Origin: a virus
Lineage: Duplodnaviria > Caudoviricetes
Length of the DNA: 64,000 nucleotides
Virus record (IMG/VR): IMGVR_UViG_2895778652_000001
Location: 28,986 to 92,985 of that record
Reading direction: 5' to 3' (one strand)
In this document: positions 17,965 through 29,058 of the stretch, piece by piece
Layout of the letters: the number at the start of each line of letters is the position of its first letter
Position numbering within the stretch: position 1 is the stretch's first letter
The notes under the pieces: model-generated
The model's input: the letters and a program-made list of their open reading frames with translations, nothing else
Database searches by the model: none
Told to the model about the DNA's origin: nothing
Program-made: the position numbers and the translations under genes

Positions 17965-18359
17965 TGCTGATCCTTGCGGGCCACGCGGGTGAGCTGCCCG
18001 GCCCGGCACTCGTAAGGGCGGTTCTCGCCCTGCAAGAACACCTTGAAATCTGGCCCGCCTTTCTCCGGGTAATCGTCCACGATCAGGCCCGGCTCATCCT
18101 CCAGGGTGTCCACGTCCATGCTGACGGCCTGTTCGCAGGTGCCGTTCACGCGCACCCAGTCGCCTATCTGGAGATCGCCATTGCAGCGGATCAGCTCGGT
18201 ACGCTTCATATGGAGAATCAACCCAGCCGCGCTACCGCCCTCGGCAGCCAGTGTGTAGGTTCCGTATTCGTCCATCGAAACGACGCATGCCTGCTGGGCA
18301 CTCCAGCTGTCGCGGGTGATCACCACTTCGTCACCAGCGTCCAGAATCTGCTTGCTCAT
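17961..18359 (-). CDS. Hypothetical protein with tandem SH3/KOW-like repeats
   Basis: GDEVVI / LQIGDWVRV repeats. Confidence 0.55.
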   Translation of the reverse strand: MSKQILDAGDEVVITRDSWSAQQACVVSMDEYGTYTLAAEGGSAAGLILHMKRTELIRCNGDLQIGDWVRVNGTCEQAVSMDVDTLEDEPGLIVDDYPEKGGPDFKVFLQGENRPYECRAGQLTRVARKDQQ

Positions 18360-18528
18360 GCCGCCGCCATGCGGTTCAGTTCCATCCGGCAGGCCCGCGC
18401 GATCCGGTCACTGCGGCGGGCGCGGGTGCGGCGCTCAGGGGTGCAGGGATCGGCAGACAGCTCGGAGAACAGCGCCAGCGCATGCAGGCGGCGCAGGCGG
18501 GCGAGGCGAGAGCGGGCGGGACGGCGGA

Positions 18529-18939
18529 TCACGCCGCCACCTGTCCTTCCAGCCCGCTGGCCGCCTTCAGATCCCGCTCGAACTCAGCGCGCACTTTCTT
18601 CCAGCTCTTGACCACGTCGTTCAGGCGGCGGGTGCGGCGCGCGACGTGGAATGTGCCGCCGTCGGTGCTGACCTCAAAACCAAGCACGCGTAGGCCGGTG
18701 ATGACGCGGCTGGCGCTGAAGTTGAACTCGCGGCTGGCGGTGGTGGTGATCGCGCGTCCCTCAATGAACTTCAGTACTTCAGCGAACGCGACGAACTTCA
18801 GGACGCACTTGGGGCCGACAACACCGATGAAGGGCACGTCGTAGCCGCCCTTGCTCAGCGCCAGGCCGCAGCACGCGCACTGGGCGGCGTCCGCGTGGGG
18901 GAAGGTGTGGGGCTTGCTTTCGGGGGCGGTGTGCGTCAT
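18529..18939 (-). CDS. First gene of leftward early operon; CxxC...GPxC zinc-binding protein
   Basis: GGAGA SD; CACCG...VGPKC. Confidence 0.6.
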   Translation of the reverse strand: MTHTAPESKPHTFPHADAAQCACCGLALSKGGYDVPFIGVVGPKCVLKFVAFAEVLKFIEGRAITTTASREFNFSASRVITGLRVLGFEVSTDGGTFHVARRTRRLNDVVKSWKKVRAEFERDLKAASGLEGQVAA

Positions 18940-19013
18940 GCTTTCTCCGTTACTCCCTCGCCTGGATTTGCTTAGCGGCATTCGGCGGGGGAGTGCCTTT
19001 TTGGCTTGAAACA

Positions 19014-19063
19014 ATCTTACCATCTACTGGGGATATTATGCAACAATATCTCCAGTAGATAGG
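19014..19063 (-). promoter_or_regulatory. Leftward early promoter (TTGCAT-N18-TAAGAT) overlapped by a double operator
   Basis: 16-bp inverted repeat ATCTACTGGGGATATT (19022-37) / AATATCTCCAGTAGAT (19045-60), one mismatch. Confidence 0.7.
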
Positions 19064-19124
19064 AAGGTCGGCAACGCCCACCTGAACTTGATTTGTCTGC
19101 TACCGTAATTCACACAGGAGACAT

Positions 19125-20501
19125 ATGCCCGGAACATCCAATTGGGGGCCAGAAGAGGTTGACGCCGCTTTGAAGAAACGAGGCGCTGACGCCATTCTTG
19201 CCGTGCCACCGGGGCCAGGGCTGAAGCAAACCGCCGTCTGGGCGCGTGCGGCGCTAACTGCAAACCATCTACGCAAAATGCAGGAGGCCTGCCAGCGACT
19301 GGCTGTTTTCCAGACCCCCCTCGCCATGGGCCTGTCCGTTGCCATTACCAGCCAGGTGGGTGAACACGATGAGGCTCTGGACATGCCCATGCCCCGCGCC
19401 AGTTCTGCGCGCACCGATCAGGACGGGCTGGCATGGTTCTACTTGGGGCGCAGCTCCTCTCTGGCCGCTCTGGGCCGTCCTGGGGAAGCGCTGGTGGAAC
19501 TTGGGCGCGGCATTGCCGCCGCAGAGGCCGCAGGGCTGCCAGAGCGCGCCCAGCTCCTGCGGTTCCACGCGCGGGTGATTGAGGTGCGGCTCGGAATCGC
19601 GGTCCCTGAGATCATCCACCAGGACCTTGCTGAACCGATGGCCGAAGGCCGCAGGAGCTGGCACAGCGGAAATTACGCGGCTGCACTGTTGCAGCGGGGG
19701 GAGTACCGCCGCGCCTCACTGGCCTCAGAGGCTGGGAACATGTACCACACTGCCGCGCTGGCCTTGCAGGGCATCGACGGCGGCGATCATCTCCGCAGCG
19801 CTTCCCAGATCGCCGCCCGAACCTGGGCCAAAGCCTGGGCCGGGCAGACCGTCCCCCGCGTCTCTGATCTGGGCCACTCGCTGGTCGGCAGTTACGCCGT
19901 CCTGGCGCTGGCTCTTGATTACTCGCGCACGGTGACAGGGGCCAGGCTGGTGGGCGATCTGATCGGGGCGACACCTCCCCGGCAGGCGGACATGGCCGCG
20001 CTCTGGGCTGGAATCGGTCTTCAGGCCCTTGCGCGCGGCGGCACTGTCGCAGACCCCCTCAACACTGTCGCCACACTGTCTGACGCGCTGAGGCGACTGG
20101 GCAGCACAGATGACGTGCTGAGCATCATGACGCGGCTGATGCCAGAGGCGGTGGTGATTGCCAGCGTGGGACCAGGGGCACACCGGGAGATCGCGCTGGC
20201 TGCGAACACGCTGATGACGCGTTCAGGCTCCCCCACCACGGCGCAGGTGCTGGCTGCTTATGCCCAGCAGAACGTCCAGACGCGGCCAGGACGCGCACCC
20301 AACTTTGGGGCCATCCTGGTGGCCCTGGAACACCTGATTGAGACCGCCGCAGATCAGGAGCGGGTGGGCCTGGAACACCAGTGGAGAATGGCGCGGGAGG
20401 CCGTCCTGTTTGAGCATGGGGGCCGGTGGGCGCTGCCAGGGGCAATCACAGGAACTTACCATTGCGGACAGCCCTCCAGTGGCCGCACACTGGAGGCATG
20501 A
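19125..20501 (+). CDS. TPR-like all-helical protein, candidate peptide receptor
   Basis: AGGAG SD; TPR-like helices (AWFYLGRSSSLAALGRPGEALVEL; YAAALLQRGEYRRA); stop overlaps the start of a secreted peptide gene. Confidence 0.7.
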   Translation: MPGTSNWGPEEVDAALKKRGADAILAVPPGPGLKQTAVWARAALTANHLRKMQEACQRLAVFQTPLAMGLSVAITSQVGEHDEALDMPMPRASSARTDQDGLAWFYLGRSSSLAALGRPGEALVELGRGIAAAEAAGLPERAQLLRFHARVIEVRLGIAVPEIIHQDLAEPMAEGRRSWHSGNYAAALLQRGEYRRASLASEAGNMYHTAALALQGIDGGDHLRSASQIAARTWAKAWAGQTVPRVSDLGHSLVGSYAVLALALDYSRTVTGARLVGDLIGATPPRQADMAALWAGIGLQALARGGTVADPLNTVATLSDALRRLGSTDDVLSIMTRLMPEAVVIASVGPGAHREIALAANTLMTRSGSPTTAQVLAAYAQQNVQTRPGRAPNFGAILVALEHLIETAADQERVGLEHQWRMAREAVLFEHGGRWALPGAITGTYHCGQPSSGRTLEA

Positions 20502-20632
20502 AAAAATTACTGCTAACGGTCCTCTGTCTGATCCTGGCGACTGCTCCTGCTGGTGCAATCAAACTGAAGGGCAGTGATGGGTCACAGGGCAGCCCTTCCA
20601 GGATCGGCAACGATCCCTGCCACGGCTGCTGA
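20498..20632 (+). CDS. 44-aa secreted propeptide MKKLLLTVLCLILATAPAGA|IKLKGSDGSQGSPSRIGNDPCHGC
   Basis: KK + hydrophobic core + A-G-A signal peptidase I site; ATGA overlap; CACACT-N6-ATG leaderless-type start; terminal CxxC. Confidence 0.75.
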   Translation: MKKLLLTVLCLILATAPAGAIKLKGSDGSQGSPSRIGNDPCHGC

Positions 20633-20635
20633 GTC

Positions 20636-21199
20636 TTACTTTTCTTTGAACGCGGCCAGCGCGCCGACCAACTGACCCATAACCCGGCCCCGGCCAGCAG
20701 CAAGCTGCGCGGGCAGTGCGAACAATCTGCCGTCGTCCAGTTCGGTGATGACGATTCCTTCCAGAGTGCTGTCTGGGTCAATTTGGACAATATGCCCGGC
20801 AGGAACTGTCCACTCTCCGTGGAGAGGACTTTTTAATTCCAACTCGATGAGGTTACGAGAATCCTCACCGTGCCCCCAGGGCTTTGGCCGGAACGTCCTG
20901 AAAGACCGCTGCTGCGGCAGAGGGATGTGGAACAACTTCCACGCCTCTTTGTCGGTAATTCCGAGCGTGCCTATGAAACGCTCAGCGGTGGCCTGCCGCA
21001 TGCGGGCAATGTCCAGCTCCCCGGTGATGTACATGCCGAGGGTGCTGAGCGCGATATTGGATTTCTTTGCGAAGTCCTCTAGGAAAATCTCTCTGGAATC
21101 CAGAATGTGCTGAAACACTTGCCCGCGATGCTGAGCCGTCTCAACACTCTCTGGGAGTGGAGTTGCGCGGCGTCGCGTGTAGCGTTTTGTGTCAGTCAT
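20636..21199 (-). CDS. CI-like phage repressor (XRE HTH + degenerate S24-like C-terminal domain)
   Basis: LEDFAKKSNIALSTLGMYITG HTH; divergent from cro-like gene across operator-bearing promoters. Confidence 0.75.
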   Translation of the reverse strand: MTDTKRYTRRRATPLPESVETAQHRGQVFQHILDSREIFLEDFAKKSNIALSTLGMYITGELDIARMRQATAERFIGTLGITDKEAWKLFHIPLPQQRSFRTFRPKPWGHGEDSRNLIELELKSPLHGEWTVPAGHIVQIDPDSTLEGIVITELDDGRLFALPAQLAAGRGRVMGQLVGALAAFKEK

Positions 21200-21216
21200 A
21201 GCACTTCCTATCTGCA

Positions 21217-21246
21217 AGTTTACCAGTAGCTGGGAGAATTATACAA
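21217..21246 (-). promoter_or_regulatory. cI promoter TTGTAT-N18-TAAACT with operator CCAGTAGCTGG in the spacer
   Basis: Same promoter/operator architecture as 19014-19043. Confidence 0.6.
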
Positions 21247-21354
21247 GGGTCCATGTGAAGTAAACCCCGTTGCCAGCGCAAAAATACGCGGCAAGCTAAG
21301 TGTTCTGATCGGTATTAGCCACAAGCTGATTAAGTGGTGGCGCGTTTCACCGTC

Positions 21355-21406
21355 TTCCAAAAATCCCCAGTTAGTGGTATTTTGTTGTCATGATTTCAGT
21401 AGCTGG
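21355..21406 (+). promoter_or_regulatory. cro promoter TTCCAA-N17-TATTTT (leaderless) with operators CCAGTTAGTGG and TCAGTAGCTGG
   Basis: One operator in the spacer, a second in the first cro codons. Confidence 0.6.
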
Positions 21407-21710
21407 TGAAAAGGTACGCGCTGCCCGCTTGGCGGCGGGTATCCGATCTGTCCAGGCAGCAGCCCGCGCAGCGCACTTGAACTACAAGACGATTGAGGCA
21501 TTTGAGGGGCGTGGCGACGCCAAGGTACCCACCAATCCAAAAATGGAAACCCTGCTCGCGCTGGCTGCTGCCTACGGCTGTAGCCCACGCGATTTTACCG
21601 AGAACCCCGAGGAGTGGGATCGTGCAGCCCAAGCACTGGGGCTGCCAGCCACTCTTGGCGCAGTCGTAGGAGGTCAGTACATAGAACCCGCCCTCAACCC
21701 CACGTCCTAA
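21390..21710 (+). CDS. Cro-like XRE HTH regulator
   Basis: GEKVRAARLAAG..SVQAAARAAHLNYKTIEAFEG..NPKMETLLALAAAYG. Confidence 0.85.
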   Translation: MISVAGEKVRAARLAAGIRSVQAAARAAHLNYKTIEAFEGRGDAKVPTNPKMETLLALAAAYGCSPRDFTENPEEWDRAAQALGLPATLGAVVGGQYIEPALNPTS

Positions 21711-21762
21711 AAAAGAAGTTGCCCCAGGGGTCAGATCCCAGGGGCGTTTTGGAGGTTCTCGT

Positions 21763-22470
21763 ATGACCAGCATTGTAGCAGTTCAAGAATTCCAGGGCGA
21801 GGCACGGGCGGACAGCCGCCATCTCGCTGCCCGCATGGAAAACAAGCACAAAAGCCTGATGAGTCTCATTGATGATTATGCCGAGGATTTTAGTCGCCTT
21901 GGACACCTGCGATTTGAAATGGAGACTGTTAAAAACAGCGTTGGAGCCGCAAATAAATCCCGTCATGCCCTCCTGAACGAAGACCAGTGCTACTTCCTCC
22001 TGACTCTGGTTCGCAACAGCGACGCCACCGTCCCCATGAAGCGCGAGCTGGTCCAGGCGTTCGGGGAGTACCGCCGCCGCGTCGCCCTGGCCCCTGCGCC
22101 GATCCTGCCCACCGATCCTCTGGAACTGCTGGAGCTGAGCCTGCGCGGCATGAAGCAGACCCGTGAGGAGGTCCGGGTGTTGCAGGCCACCACCGCCGCG
22201 CTGGAGGTCCGACTGGACAATACGCCCATTGCCATGCACCCCGAGATGGAGGCCACCATCTACGCGCTGTGTCAGGAGCTGGCCCGCGTCATCCCCGGCG
22301 GGTACAGCGCCGCGTACCGGGCGTTCAAGAGCAAATTCGGGGAAGCGGGCCTGCCTCTGGCGAAATACACCAGTCTGCCCGCCCGCCGCTTCCCAGAGGG
22401 CTGTGGCTATCTGCGTGGCCTGATCGCGCAGCACAGCCAGGATGGCCGCTTGATTGAGGCGAGGGCATGA
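21763..22470 (+). CDS. Rha-family phage regulatory protein/antirepressor
   Basis: ADSRHLAARMENKHK, ALLNEDQCYFLLTL, KRELVQAF; C-terminal YRAFKSKFG...Y...LP. Confidence 0.85.
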   Translation: MTSIVAVQEFQGEARADSRHLAARMENKHKSLMSLIDDYAEDFSRLGHLRFEMETVKNSVGAANKSRHALLNEDQCYFLLTLVRNSDATVPMKRELVQAFGEYRRRVALAPAPILPTDPLELLELSLRGMKQTREEVRVLQATTAALEVRLDNTPIAMHPEMEATIYALCQELARVIPGGYSAAYRAFKSKFGEAGLPLAKYTSLPARRFPEGCGYLRGLIAQHSQDGRLIEARA

Positions 22471-22814
22471 GCCGCAACATTCCGGCTCCACATGGCCTGT
22501 TCCCAGACGCCGATCCCAGTCGCACCTACCCGCCTGAGCTGCTCGCCGCTGCCCAGCGCCCCATGTCGCCCCGCCCCTATCAGCCGCCCACGCTGGAAGA
22601 AGTGCAGGACGACGCGCAGCTCGAAGAACTGCGCCAGCTCCTGACCAAACTCCTGGCCTGCCGCGAACGGGTGGACCCGGCGGTGTTTGAGGCCGGATTT
22701 ATGGGCCTGGCCGTCAAGAACCTCGCGTATCACGCCCATGAACTGCTGGCCAAGTGGCTGGCCAGCAGCGCGCAGGCGGATGACCCGATGACGTTGGACG
22801 CGGCCAGCGCATGA
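22467..22814 (+). CDS. Hypothetical phage protein
   Basis: ATGA-coupled to Rha. Confidence 0.55.
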   Translation: MSRNIPAPHGLFPDADPSRTYPPELLAAAQRPMSPRPYQPPTLEEVQDDAQLEELRQLLTKLLACRERVDPAVFEAGFMGLAVKNLAYHAHELLAKWLASSAQADDPMTLDAASA

Positions 22815-22815
22815 G

Positions 22816-23331
22816 CTACATCCCTTTGATCAGCAGCTCGGCCAGCATGCCGCCAGTTTCCGTGCAGGTCATGCCCGCCTTGGCACCGCCTTCCTGCGCC
22901 GTGGCGAGCTGCCGCATCACGTCGGGTAGCGGCATATCGCGGCCTGATTCCCTGCGCACCATCTGCTGCAAGTTGACCACCAGGTCCGCGACGCTGACGT
23001 TCGCGGGTGGACACAGCGTCTGGAGGCGGGCGTACTGGCGGGTCAACTCGGGATCGTTCTCGCTGACGCCCGCCACGATGGCGAGGTTCTGGATATCCGT
23101 GCGCGCAGGTGGGGCAGCTCGCCACGGCGCAGGCGCTGCGGTGCGCCGGTCTGCCCCACTGGGCAACACCCCCAGGATGCCCAATCCCACAACAAACACG
23201 AGTGCGCCCACCACCACGCTCCTGAAGGTGCTGGCCATCGGTGGACGTGGCGTGCTGCGGCGGGCATGGACGGCGGCATACACCAGGGCCGCGCCCACGA
23301 TCAGGAACACGGCAGCCAAAAGAGTGGACAT
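22816..23331 (-). CDS. Two-TM membrane protein (moron-like, opposite strand)
   Basis: Two hydrophobic helices then a soluble domain with two Cys. Confidence 0.6.
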   Translation of the reverse strand: MSTLLAAVFLIVGAALVYAAVHARRSTPRPPMASTFRSVVVGALVFVVGLGILGVLPSGADRRTAAPAPWRAAPPARTDIQNLAIVAGVSENDPELTRQYARLQTLCPPANVSVADLVVNLQQMVRRESGRDMPLPDVMRQLATAQEGGAKAGMTCTETGGMLAELLIKGM

Positions 23332-28557: not shown

Positions 28558-29058
28558 ATGACTGAACCCACTCCACCCGACAACCGCCTCTGGTGCTGGA
28601 GCCGTCACCCCAGCGGCCCCTTCCATGGACCAGACCCCGATCAAGGCACTTCAGCACTGGACTCGCTCAGCGATCCCACCACCCCAGCCATCCCAGAGAG
28701 CGATCAGCCATGGGTATACATCGGGCGCTGTGCTCCAGGACTCGCCAGCAGCTTCCTGCCGGATCTGGACGGACTGATCGGCGACGCCCGCATCACGGCC
28801 TACGACATGCACCGGGACAGGCCGCTCAGCGCCCGCCGCCCGTCGGACTGGCTGGGCAACCTCAGTCCCGCCGAACACCAGGACCTGCTGGACCGCGTGG
28901 GCCGGGCCTTCGACGATTGGGCCTCGCAGCACCACCGGCAGCCGGAGTTCTTCCAGGTGCAGGACGTGCAGGCGCTGACCTGGGCTGAAGCAGACGCGGT
29001 GGCCCGGGACTATGCGAAAGAGCTGCTCGCGGTCATGGCCAGCGGGGCAAGCCAGTAA
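28558..29058 (+). CDS. Hypothetical phage protein
   Basis: GAGG SD; 166 aa. Confidence 0.6.
   Translation: MTEPTPPDNRLWCWSRHPSGPFHGPDPDQGTSALDSLSDPTTPAIPESDQPWVYIGRCAPGLASSFLPDLDGLIGDARITAYDMHRDRPLSARRPSDWLGNLSPAEHQDLLDRVGRAFDDWASQHHRQPEFFQVQDVQALTWAEADAVARDYAKELLAVMASGASQ

Follow-up and report, generated by a model that had tools for sequence, protein, structure and literature searches.

A candidate peptide-signalling cassette within the lysis-lysogeny switch of a Deinococcota prophage

To our knowledge, and judging by the reviews and surveys searched, genetically encoded peptide signalling via cytoplasmic tetratricopeptide repeat (TPR) receptors has no described example outside Bacillota and their mobile elements, and arbitrium none outside Bacillus phages. 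In its extended form the arbitrium module comprises aimR, aimP and aimX followed by a convergent aimC and by aimL, an arrangement that a recent preprint reports for approximately 75% of arbitrium systems (10.1101/2025.11.23.689978). The present work concerns a two-gene cassette in a 64,000-nucleotide stretch of viral DNA (the window; positions 28,986 to 92,985 of IMG/VR record IMGVR_UViG_2895778652_000001), which encodes a helical receptor candidate and a short propeptide with an export signal, and which adjoins the gene of a cI-like repressor. The reading favoured here, with a probability of roughly 0.6, is that the cassette constitutes a peptide signal and its receptor, which together control the phage switch in a manner similar to arbitrium or Rap-Phr. 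It is a strong candidate for peptide signalling between viruses beyond the Bacillus group, and by analogy the module would function like these systems while being built from a protein family without detectable sequence relation to them.

The window is a prophage region that encodes a large terminase, a portal, a head protease, an integrase, DNA methyltransferases and a DnaD/O-like replication protein, and members of the receptor family are annotated at source as 'hypothetical protein [Deinococcus sp.]' and 'hypothetical protein [Deinococcus grandis]'. The cassette sits inside the lysis-lysogeny switch and is flanked by operator-bearing regions, with the receptor gene followed by the propeptide gene, the convergent cI-like repressor gene, the cro-like gene and then a Rha-like gene (Table 1). 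The TGA of the receptor gene (20499-20501) overlaps the ATG of the propeptide gene (20498-20500) as ATGA, and the propeptide stop is separated by 3 bp from the stop of the convergent repressor open reading frame (ORF), with no terminator-like site between the two stops in the window. This layout of a 458-residue ORF, an ATGA overlap, a 44-codon ORF and a 3-bp gap to the repressor had been described in an initial annotation of the stretch, and all of its elements were re-found in the ORF list and the sequence. The same annotation stated that the 44-codon form is missing from the ORF track, and the list indeed gives this frame solely as a 68-residue GTG form starting at 20426. The propeptide reads MKKLLLTVLCLILATAPAGA / IKLKGSDGSQGSPSRI / GNDPCHGC, so that the peptide with its Sec signal, A-x-A site and GNDPCHGC end is as originally quoted; its signal peptide consists of MKK, a hydrophobic core and APAGA.

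The pairing of receptor and peptide is conserved among relatives, which were collected from 363-364 genomes of the phylum, first with the single protein as query and then with a profile. The receptor family is narrow, with 25 representatives among 1.84 billion proteins, and is found in 26 of 364 phylum genomes, nearly all within one family of the phylum. The expectation of the initial annotation that homologs should keep a downstream secreted-peptide ORF is borne out at 27 loci. A signal-peptide ORF on the same strand follows the receptor in 23/23 full-length relatives whose DNA was read (23-60% identity), in one broken receptor copy, and in three of seven remote partial matches from other families of the order (a count made without rows G321:C59 and G118:C1). 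No peptide ORF lies downstream of the remote matches L054-L057, which may be unrelated TPR proteins. In a receptor tree in which rows L013 (antisense long ORF) and L058 (very long branch) were disregarded, the clades with conserved pairing span branch lengths of 0.4-1.5 substitutions per site. A single-protein search of genome contigs and a search of viral contigs with alignment A2 returned pattern matches and no relative.

The peptides of the relatives are 34-81 codons long; all share a basic N-terminus that leads into a hydrophobic core, and a small-residue cleavage site (27/27; A-x-A in 21), with cleavage sites called by a crude (-3,-1) rule. At their C-terminus, 26 of 27 carry CxxC followed by 0-4 residues, the sole other end being that of L003 (CGGDC, then 15 residues). 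Pro directly precedes the first Cys in 22 of these 26 peptides, Asp or Glu stands two residues ahead of it in 13, and exactly two Cys are present in 25 of the 27 mature parts. The linkers are rich in P, T, S and A and variable in sequence, and the mature parts vary from 6 to 56 residues, the shortest measuring 6-11 residues (L052, L053). Within receptor clades the last 6-11 residues are conserved and the pro-region diverges in both sequence and length, which points to the C-terminal segment as the putative mature signal. Furthermore, L009 and L017 share an identical NDPCAEC, and L007 and L016 an identical PCPKC, despite distant receptors. The peptide tails track the receptor clades in the tree; as kin share tail labels, this pattern alone is no evidence of co-evolution. 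A control on the host genome found that 12 of 93,286 stop-to-stop frames of at least 30 codons pair a signal-peptide-like start with a C..C end, and among these twelve the window's frame alone resembles a real peptide, the other eleven having the look of out-of-frame GC-rich noise.

Two observations concern individual relatives. In G071:C7 (L014/L049) the receptor is spread over three frames with an in-frame TGA, next to an intact peptide gene (...MDPCPWC) with an intact -10 box. The 188.8-kb contig G082:C8 contains two identical cassettes approximately 94.4 kb apart (L008/L034 and L015/L059) and may be a dimer assembly of a plasmid-like element of about 94 kb. As for the wider surroundings, in 12 of 16 contexts the convergent neighbour belongs to the repressor family of the window, and an integrase family lies nearby in 9 of 16. 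The terminase type of the window occurs on the contig of the cassette in one other cassette genome (G058, contig C21), on a separate contig in G109, and in six genomes that have no cassette. This distribution indicates that the cassette is a mosaic module and not the marker of one phage lineage.

The propeptide gene also appears to have a promoter of its own. A strict TANNNT hexamer is positioned 5-7 nt before the signal-peptide start codon at 20 of 27 loci, and at 24 of 27 when the first base is relaxed, the CACACT of the window included, while only 78 of 4,931 (1.6%) other ATG, GTG or TTG triplets on the same strands have a TANNNT box. TAnnnT is the -10 consensus of Deinococcus deserti, in which 60% of mRNAs are leaderless (PMC4007540). 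Given the fixed distance of the hexamer and the leaderless mRNAs of Deinococcus, the propeptide gene is most likely transcribed alone as a leaderless mRNA. The phr genes also have promoters of their own. Ala is the last residue in each of the 10 receptors that form the clade of the window (GC[A/G]TGA), which is explained by the promoter and start of the peptide gene being embedded in the last codons of the receptor gene. This conserved terminal Ala (10/10) in turn suggests that the closest relatives (43-60% identity; P0002, P0003) have peptide genes as well. The inverted repeat that covers the -10-like hexamer (Table 1) has CTCCAGT in common with the left operator arm and could be either a regulator site or a product of chance.

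The stored gene call for the receptor (P0001) is a 372-residue truncation, and the 458-residue start is regarded as right because relatives with 43-60% identity are 456-459 residues long with a common N-terminus. This N-terminus has no signal peptide: seven of the first 25 residues are charged, at most 12 hydrophobic residues occur per 19-residue window, and no stretch resembles a transmembrane segment. An AlphaFold2 model calculated from a 28-sequence alignment (predicted local distance difference test (pLDDT) score 90.1; predicted template modelling score 0.88) contains 26 helices that are arranged in an all-helical superhelix. Comparison of this model with 48,161 chains by the exhaustive structural aligner VIA gave domain III of MalT as the best match (Z 16.0), followed by a D. 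radiodurans TPR protein, RapI (13.1), NprR (12.9), PlcR (12.1) and SPbeta AimR (12.0, over 291 residues), and further down by phi105 Rap (11.9), phAimR (11.8) and ComR (9.6). RapI, NprR, PlcR, AimR, phi105 Rap and ComR are all within the top 50 of these chains. Thus a TPR-like fold, as anticipated in the initial annotation, is predicted, with RRNPP receptors among the top structural matches and without a Pfam match on the protein itself. The scores indicate that the modelled protein is a TPR-like superhelix of RRNPP-like size and shape, and not that it is a homolog. The alignments start at residue 66 of NprR, 71 of PlcR, 74 of ComR and 37-43 of AimR, that is, after or late in their helix-turn-helix (HTH) domains, and neither Pfam families nor structural alignment yielded an HTH in the receptor, in agreement with the earlier statement that no clear HTH is present. 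The predicted architecture is consequently Rap-like.

Sequence searches were less informative, as the receptor of the window matched no Pfam and no PHROG family. Weak generic Pfam TPR matches were obtained in up to 8 of the 28 members of the receptor family, NCBIfam gave scattered chance matches only, and a protein atlas returned generic TPR, MalT-like and CHAT-TPR look-alikes and nothing specific. A profile of the 28 members had no match below E 0.2 among PDB sequences. Two smaller features of the receptor gene were also recorded. About 11 residues from the C-terminus, in a tail modelled with low confidence, the protein contains H446 and C447 (20460-20465), and a His-Cys pair is present in 9 of 10 clade relatives (P0002-P0011) and absent from the other receptor clades. 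The gene itself includes an 8-mer direct repeat with 11-bp spacing, ACACTGTC gcc ACACTGTC (20062-20080), which has the geometry of the repeats found after the peptide genes of relatives (see below); by chance, approximately 0.04 such 8-mer repeats would be expected at this spacing in the 2.9 kb scanned.

The convergent neighbour of the cassette had been named cI, and it is of the cI type by fold, with an XRE-type HTH and a lambda-cI-like C-terminal domain. Its AlphaFold2 model (pLDDT 86.2) has the lambda-186 hybrid repressor as best Foldseek match (E 1.7e-4). In VIA, the HTH resembles those of DdrO, C.BclI and P22 c2 at Z 7-8, and the C-terminal domain of lambda cI is matched weakly (Z 5.9 over 74 residues); the protein has no Pfam match. 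In an alignment of 11 family members (A3), in which the linker motif W-R-T-x-R-P-x-P-L-G-H-G is conserved, no invariant or nearly invariant Ser or Lys that could form a Ser/Lys dyad is present. RecA-type self-cleavage of the repressor is therefore unlikely, and induction must use other means.

The remaining genes and sites of the switch are in keeping with a temperate phage control region (Table 1). The cro-like protein falls below the Pfam thresholds (HTH_31, E 1.6e-5 and 25.6 bits against a curated cut-off of 27; HTH_3 and HTH_26 also below) and matches PHROG transcriptional repressor families at E 0.0025. On the other side of the cassette, the protein of family f3 has no Pfam or PHROG match, and a homologous f3-type divergent small early gene is found upstream of the receptor at 7 loci. 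The palindrome between the f3 and receptor genes contains one exact ATCYCCAGTAG copy per arm, and half-sites similar to its arms are present between the repressor and cro-like genes; we take it as a candidate operator and infer which protein would bind it. A 10-mer operator motif with 2 mismatches is not enriched across the window (92 observed vs 77 expected), and what speaks for an operator is the exact palindrome copies and the longer similar arms. TAATAT is found 9 nt upstream of the f3 ATG (19023), at 19024-19040 on the minus strand and within the palindrome, so that the left operator overlaps the -10 element of the leftward early promoter. Rfam gave no match at E 0.1 or better in 18000-23000, and PADLOC gave none for the receptor, the propeptide, the repressor, the f3 protein and two X proteins (described below).

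Table 1. Coordinates of the cassette, of the neighbouring features and of gene X in relatives (plain numbers refer to the window, those with a prefix to the locus named)
Feature	Position	Strand	Remarks
Family f3 gene, 164 aa	18529..19023	-	Opens the leftward early operon; transcribed away from the receptor gene; from the ORF list
Left operator candidate	19016..19066		Imperfect palindrome with 22-nt arms, 86% complementary; between the f3 and receptor genes
Receptor candidate gene, 458 aa	19125..20501	+	Cytoplasmic, all-helical, TPR-like, no HTH; AGGAG ribosome-binding site at 19116-19120
Inverted repeat	20473..20496		Perfect, 9 bp, CCTCCAGTG / CACTGGAGG; covers the propeptide -10-like hexamer
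-10-like hexamer CACACT	20486..20491	+	6 nt before the propeptide ATG, in the last codons of the receptor gene (R-T-L)
Propeptide gene, 44 codons + stop	20498..20632	+	Signal peptide, polar linker, conserved tail
Sec-type signal peptide	~20498..20557	+	Part of the propeptide
Conserved tail GNDPCHGC	20606..20629	+	Part of the propeptide
cI-like repressor gene, 193 aa	20636..21217	-	XRE-type HTH and lambda-cI-like C-terminal beta domain
Right operator candidate	21218..21389		Repressor/cro intergenic region; operator-like half-sites
Half-site	21223..21240		Like the left-palindrome arms
Half-site	21360..21379		Like the left-palindrome arms
cro-like gene, 106 aa	21390..21710	+	Small HTH protein; divergent from the repressor gene
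Rha/anti-repressor-like regulator gene, 235 aa	21763..22470	+	Pfam Phage_pRha, E 2e-11; PHROG regulator and anti-repressor families
Gene X, example	L008:688-885	-	
Gene X, example	L009:744-941	-	
Gene X, example	L013:2935-3135	+	
Gene X, example	L063:1460-1660	-	
Gene X, example	L048:869-1093	-	
Gene X, example	L050:2322-2564	+	

For the favoured reading the following mechanism is proposed. The 44-residue propeptide would be made from a leaderless mRNA with a promoter of its own, exported by Sec and cut after the A-x-A site, after which extracellular trimming would release a short C-terminal fragment with (D)PCxxC. This fragment would build up with the density of infected or lysogenic cells. 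As the receptor is cytoplasmic and the peptide exported, any interaction needs re-import, and the host genome contains 27 SBP_bac_5 genes (Opp/Dpp-type binding proteins), which makes peptide import possible; the fragment would accordingly be taken up by one of the Opp/Dpp-type peptide permeases of the host and bind to the concave face of the TPR-like receptor. The absence of an HTH from the receptor and the position of the peptide gene, which abuts the repressor gene, lead us to propose action on a protein, as in Rap. The most likely target would be the non-cleavable cI-like repressor, for which the peptide-free receptor would serve as anti-repressor, and peptide binding would switch the receptor off and tip the decision to lysogeny or its maintenance. 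That the receptor acts in this Rap-like way on the neighbouring repressor is a tentative proposal, to which we attach clearly less confidence than to signalling as such. We infer that the peptide is exported, processed, re-imported and bound, as well as the target and the direction in which it would be affected.

Several points weigh against a signalling cassette of this kind. Searches of Pfam, NCBIfam and PDB profiles revealed no homology of the receptor sequence to any RRNPP family, and the protein has no recognised DNA-binding domain. Z values of 12-13 to RRNPP receptors are within the range that helical repeats reach by shared architecture alone, the best structural match is the sugar-sensing domain III of MalT, and Foldseek against the PDB gives weak generic TPR matches with E 0.013 or worse. 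We know of no paired-Cys signals among the RRNPP pheromones, and the signal would have to leave and re-enter the Deinococcus envelope, which has an outer membrane. In addition, the window is devoid of the small third gene and of the tandem repeats present after the peptide gene in most relatives, and the output in these relatives looks transcriptional, which an HTH-less receptor does not explain.

This last point is accommodated by an alternative with the same signalling and another output. Here the receptor would be an AimR-like transcription regulator that uses a non-canonical DNA-binding surface and, in most relatives, binds a tandem repeat and controls a small gene X encoding an AimX-like anti-repressor of the convergent repressor; in the clade of the window, X would have been lost and the receptor would act otherwise, for example by convergent transcription into the repressor gene. 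In most relatives the peptide and repressor genes are 180-490 bp apart. An exact direct repeat of 6-11 nt with 11-bp spacing is found no more than 90 nt after the peptide stop at 12 of 21 loci (L006, L007, L008, L011, L013, L044, L046, L047, L048, L051, L062 and L063), compared with 1.5% of shuffles. The repeat has the consensus TTGTnACGC with a unit that varies by locus. This unit is mostly single-site, being unique within the locus of approximately 4 kb in 6 of 10 loci checked, and it does not recur in the cI-cro region in the 6 wider contexts compared, so it is distinct from the repressor-cro operators. The tandem repeat is probably a protein-binding site, located where the AimR operator lies in arbitrium. 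Gene X, on the same strand between the peptide and repressor genes, is present at 14 loci or more; it encodes 66-115 residues with a conserved core of about 55 residues, and the part coding for the variable tail reaches into the 3' end of the repressor gene. No Pfam, PDB sequence-profile or PADLOC match was obtained for X, which is a possible AimX-like output.

The order of genes in these relatives thus parallels aimR-aimP-aimX-aimC-aimL, and in the window the 3-bp gap without a terminator-like site would suit convergent transcription into the repressor gene. However, neither an HTH nor any other DNA-binding fold is recognised in the receptor, and the binder of the repeat could be X, the cro-like protein or a host factor. 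Moreover, X and a tandem repeat after the peptide gene are both absent from the window and from L002, the relative nearest to it among those sequenced; the two represent a compact form, in which receptor and peptide genes overlap and a gap of 3-4 bp remains to the repressor gene. As the window is without X and repeats, the output may differ between clades. All in all, a receptor that acts directly on transcription is distinctly improbable.

Just as improbable is a second alternative, in which the small ORF encodes a secreted or periplasmic effector (a metal- or redox-active CxxC peptide, a superinfection exclusion factor or a bacteriocin-like product that the lysogen expresses) and the TPR protein is a separate regulator or accessory factor, co-inherited by coincidence. 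CxxC is a classic metal and redox motif, and lambdoid phages carry morons and exclusion genes, such as rexAB, between the repressor gene and the left operator; the candidate promoter of the peptide gene would also allow independent expression of such an effector. Nevertheless, the peptide strictly co-occurs with one receptor family (23/23 across very divergent elements), and the sole convincing peptide of this kind in the host genome adjoins the receptor. The disordered linker of variable length with its short conserved tail has the look of a propeptide instead of a folded effector, in particular where the mature part is reduced to 6-11 residues (L052, L053), and PADLOC gave no matches.

A third possibility is that the TPR protein acts as chaperone of the pre-peptide or as scaffold for its maturation, similar to those of ribosomally synthesised and post-translationally modified peptides or of secretion systems, or that the pair is an abortive-infection or toxin module with a membrane peptide. 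TPR proteins do act as secretion chaperones and scaffolds, and the N-terminal hydrophobic segment of the peptide could anchor it in the membrane. Yet the cassette contains no enzyme domain, the Sec signal is of the textbook type, every one of the 27 peptides having a small-residue cleavage site, which is A-x-A in 21, it is the extreme C-terminus and not the hydrophobic segment that is conserved, and no defence families were matched, which makes this explanation very improbable indeed. Finally, that the 44-codon frame is a chance ORF, as might be supposed of a short frame that is absent in that form from the stored gene calls and lies in GC-rich DNA rich in open frames, is refuted by the comparative data, namely the same three-part build, end motif and fixed-distance -10 box at 27 loci together with the genome-wide frame control (12/93,286).

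A description of such a system in Deinococcus or Thermus was not found in the literature, with the qualification that survey supplements could list further taxa. The terms 'Deinococc', 'diderm' and 'cysteine' are absent from the text of two RRNPP surveys, to which the supplements could add taxa (PMC10075063, PMC9765709). If the favoured reading of a signal-receptor pair is true, viral density sensing arose more than once, with a sequence-unrelated analogue in a diderm-like and deeply separate phylum, and searches for the signature of a TPR receptor and a secreted-peptide gene next to a repressor could be taken to other phyla. It would also mean a new signal chemistry, the C-terminal Pro-Cys-x-x-Cys, and a first handle on the lysis-lysogeny choice of Deinococcus prophages with non-cleavable repressors. 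The host is non-pathogenic and amenable to laboratory work. The most far-reaching version, that this is the first viral peptide communication outside Bacillota, with an independent TPR-based origin and a redox- or metal-dependent CxxC signal, in phages and plasmid-like elements of Deinococcota, is rather unlikely to hold in full. With such a redox or metal signal, density and oxidative or radiation stress, the kind of stress that defines Deinococcus, could be combined in the decision, in place of RecA-dependent cleavage, and the His-Cys pair in the receptor tail could complete a Cys3-His metal site or form a mixed disulfide with the CxxC of the peptide.

When the locus is set beside known systems, the closest structural match is domain III of MalT (PDB 1hz4), a SUPR/TPR-like sensor. 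It has a similar helical-repeat superhelix (Z 16.0 over 303 residues, with a root-mean-square deviation of 4.7) and likewise senses a ligand in its own context. Unlike the receptor, however, MalT domain III belongs to a large STAND ATPase, which also has a LuxR-type DNA-binding domain, and its ligand is maltotriose, whereas the window's protein has no NTPase or DNA-binding domain and its conserved partner is a peptide gene. As to the RRNPP family in general, the locus has the predicted cytoplasmic TPR-type superhelix and the adjacent gene for an exported-type propeptide (at 27 loci), but lacks sequence homology and the N-terminal HTH that all RRNPP members except Rap possess.

The Rap-Phr systems (RapI-PhrI of ICEBs1; phi105 Rap, PDB 8rte) are therefore an apt comparison, as their TPR receptors are HTH-less and Raps act on a protein partner. 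They also share with the window an adjacent and partly overlapping gene for a Sec-exported propeptide with a C-terminal signal, the peptide gene's own promoter, and a structural similarity of Z 13.1 for RapI and Z 11.9 over 243 residues for phi105 Rap. RapI controls an immunity repressor, albeit indirectly. On the other hand, sequence homology is absent, the window receptor is larger (458 vs approximately 380 residues), no ImmA-like protease is seen beside the repressor of the window, and its signal is a peptide with paired Cys.

The extended arbitrium module of Bacillus phages differs in that its proteins have no sequence homology to those of the cassette, and the window receptor lacks an N-terminal HTH. 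The window-type repressor is longer (about 190-220 residues, its C-terminal domain being lambda-cI-like), the signal has PCxxC at its end instead of following the arbitrium hexapeptide pattern, and the host belongs to the Deinococcota. In the clade of the window there is no aimX-like gene and the gap between peptide and repressor genes is 3 bp; the operator and small output gene that follow the peptide gene in arbitrium are accordingly missing from the window, which has no repeat and no third ORF at this position. The location in a temperate-phage switch, with a convergent repressor and a cro-like gene, is nonetheless the same. The order and orientation of the genes agree, from the receptor and the secreted propeptide to the convergent HTH repressor, the divergent cro-like gene and the early and replication genes. 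The repressor is in both cases of a non-self-cleaving type without the dyad, and in most relatives of the window's cassette a third small gene and a DNA repeat after the peptide gene are found as well, the repeat at the position of the AimR operator (10.1101/2025.11.23.689978).

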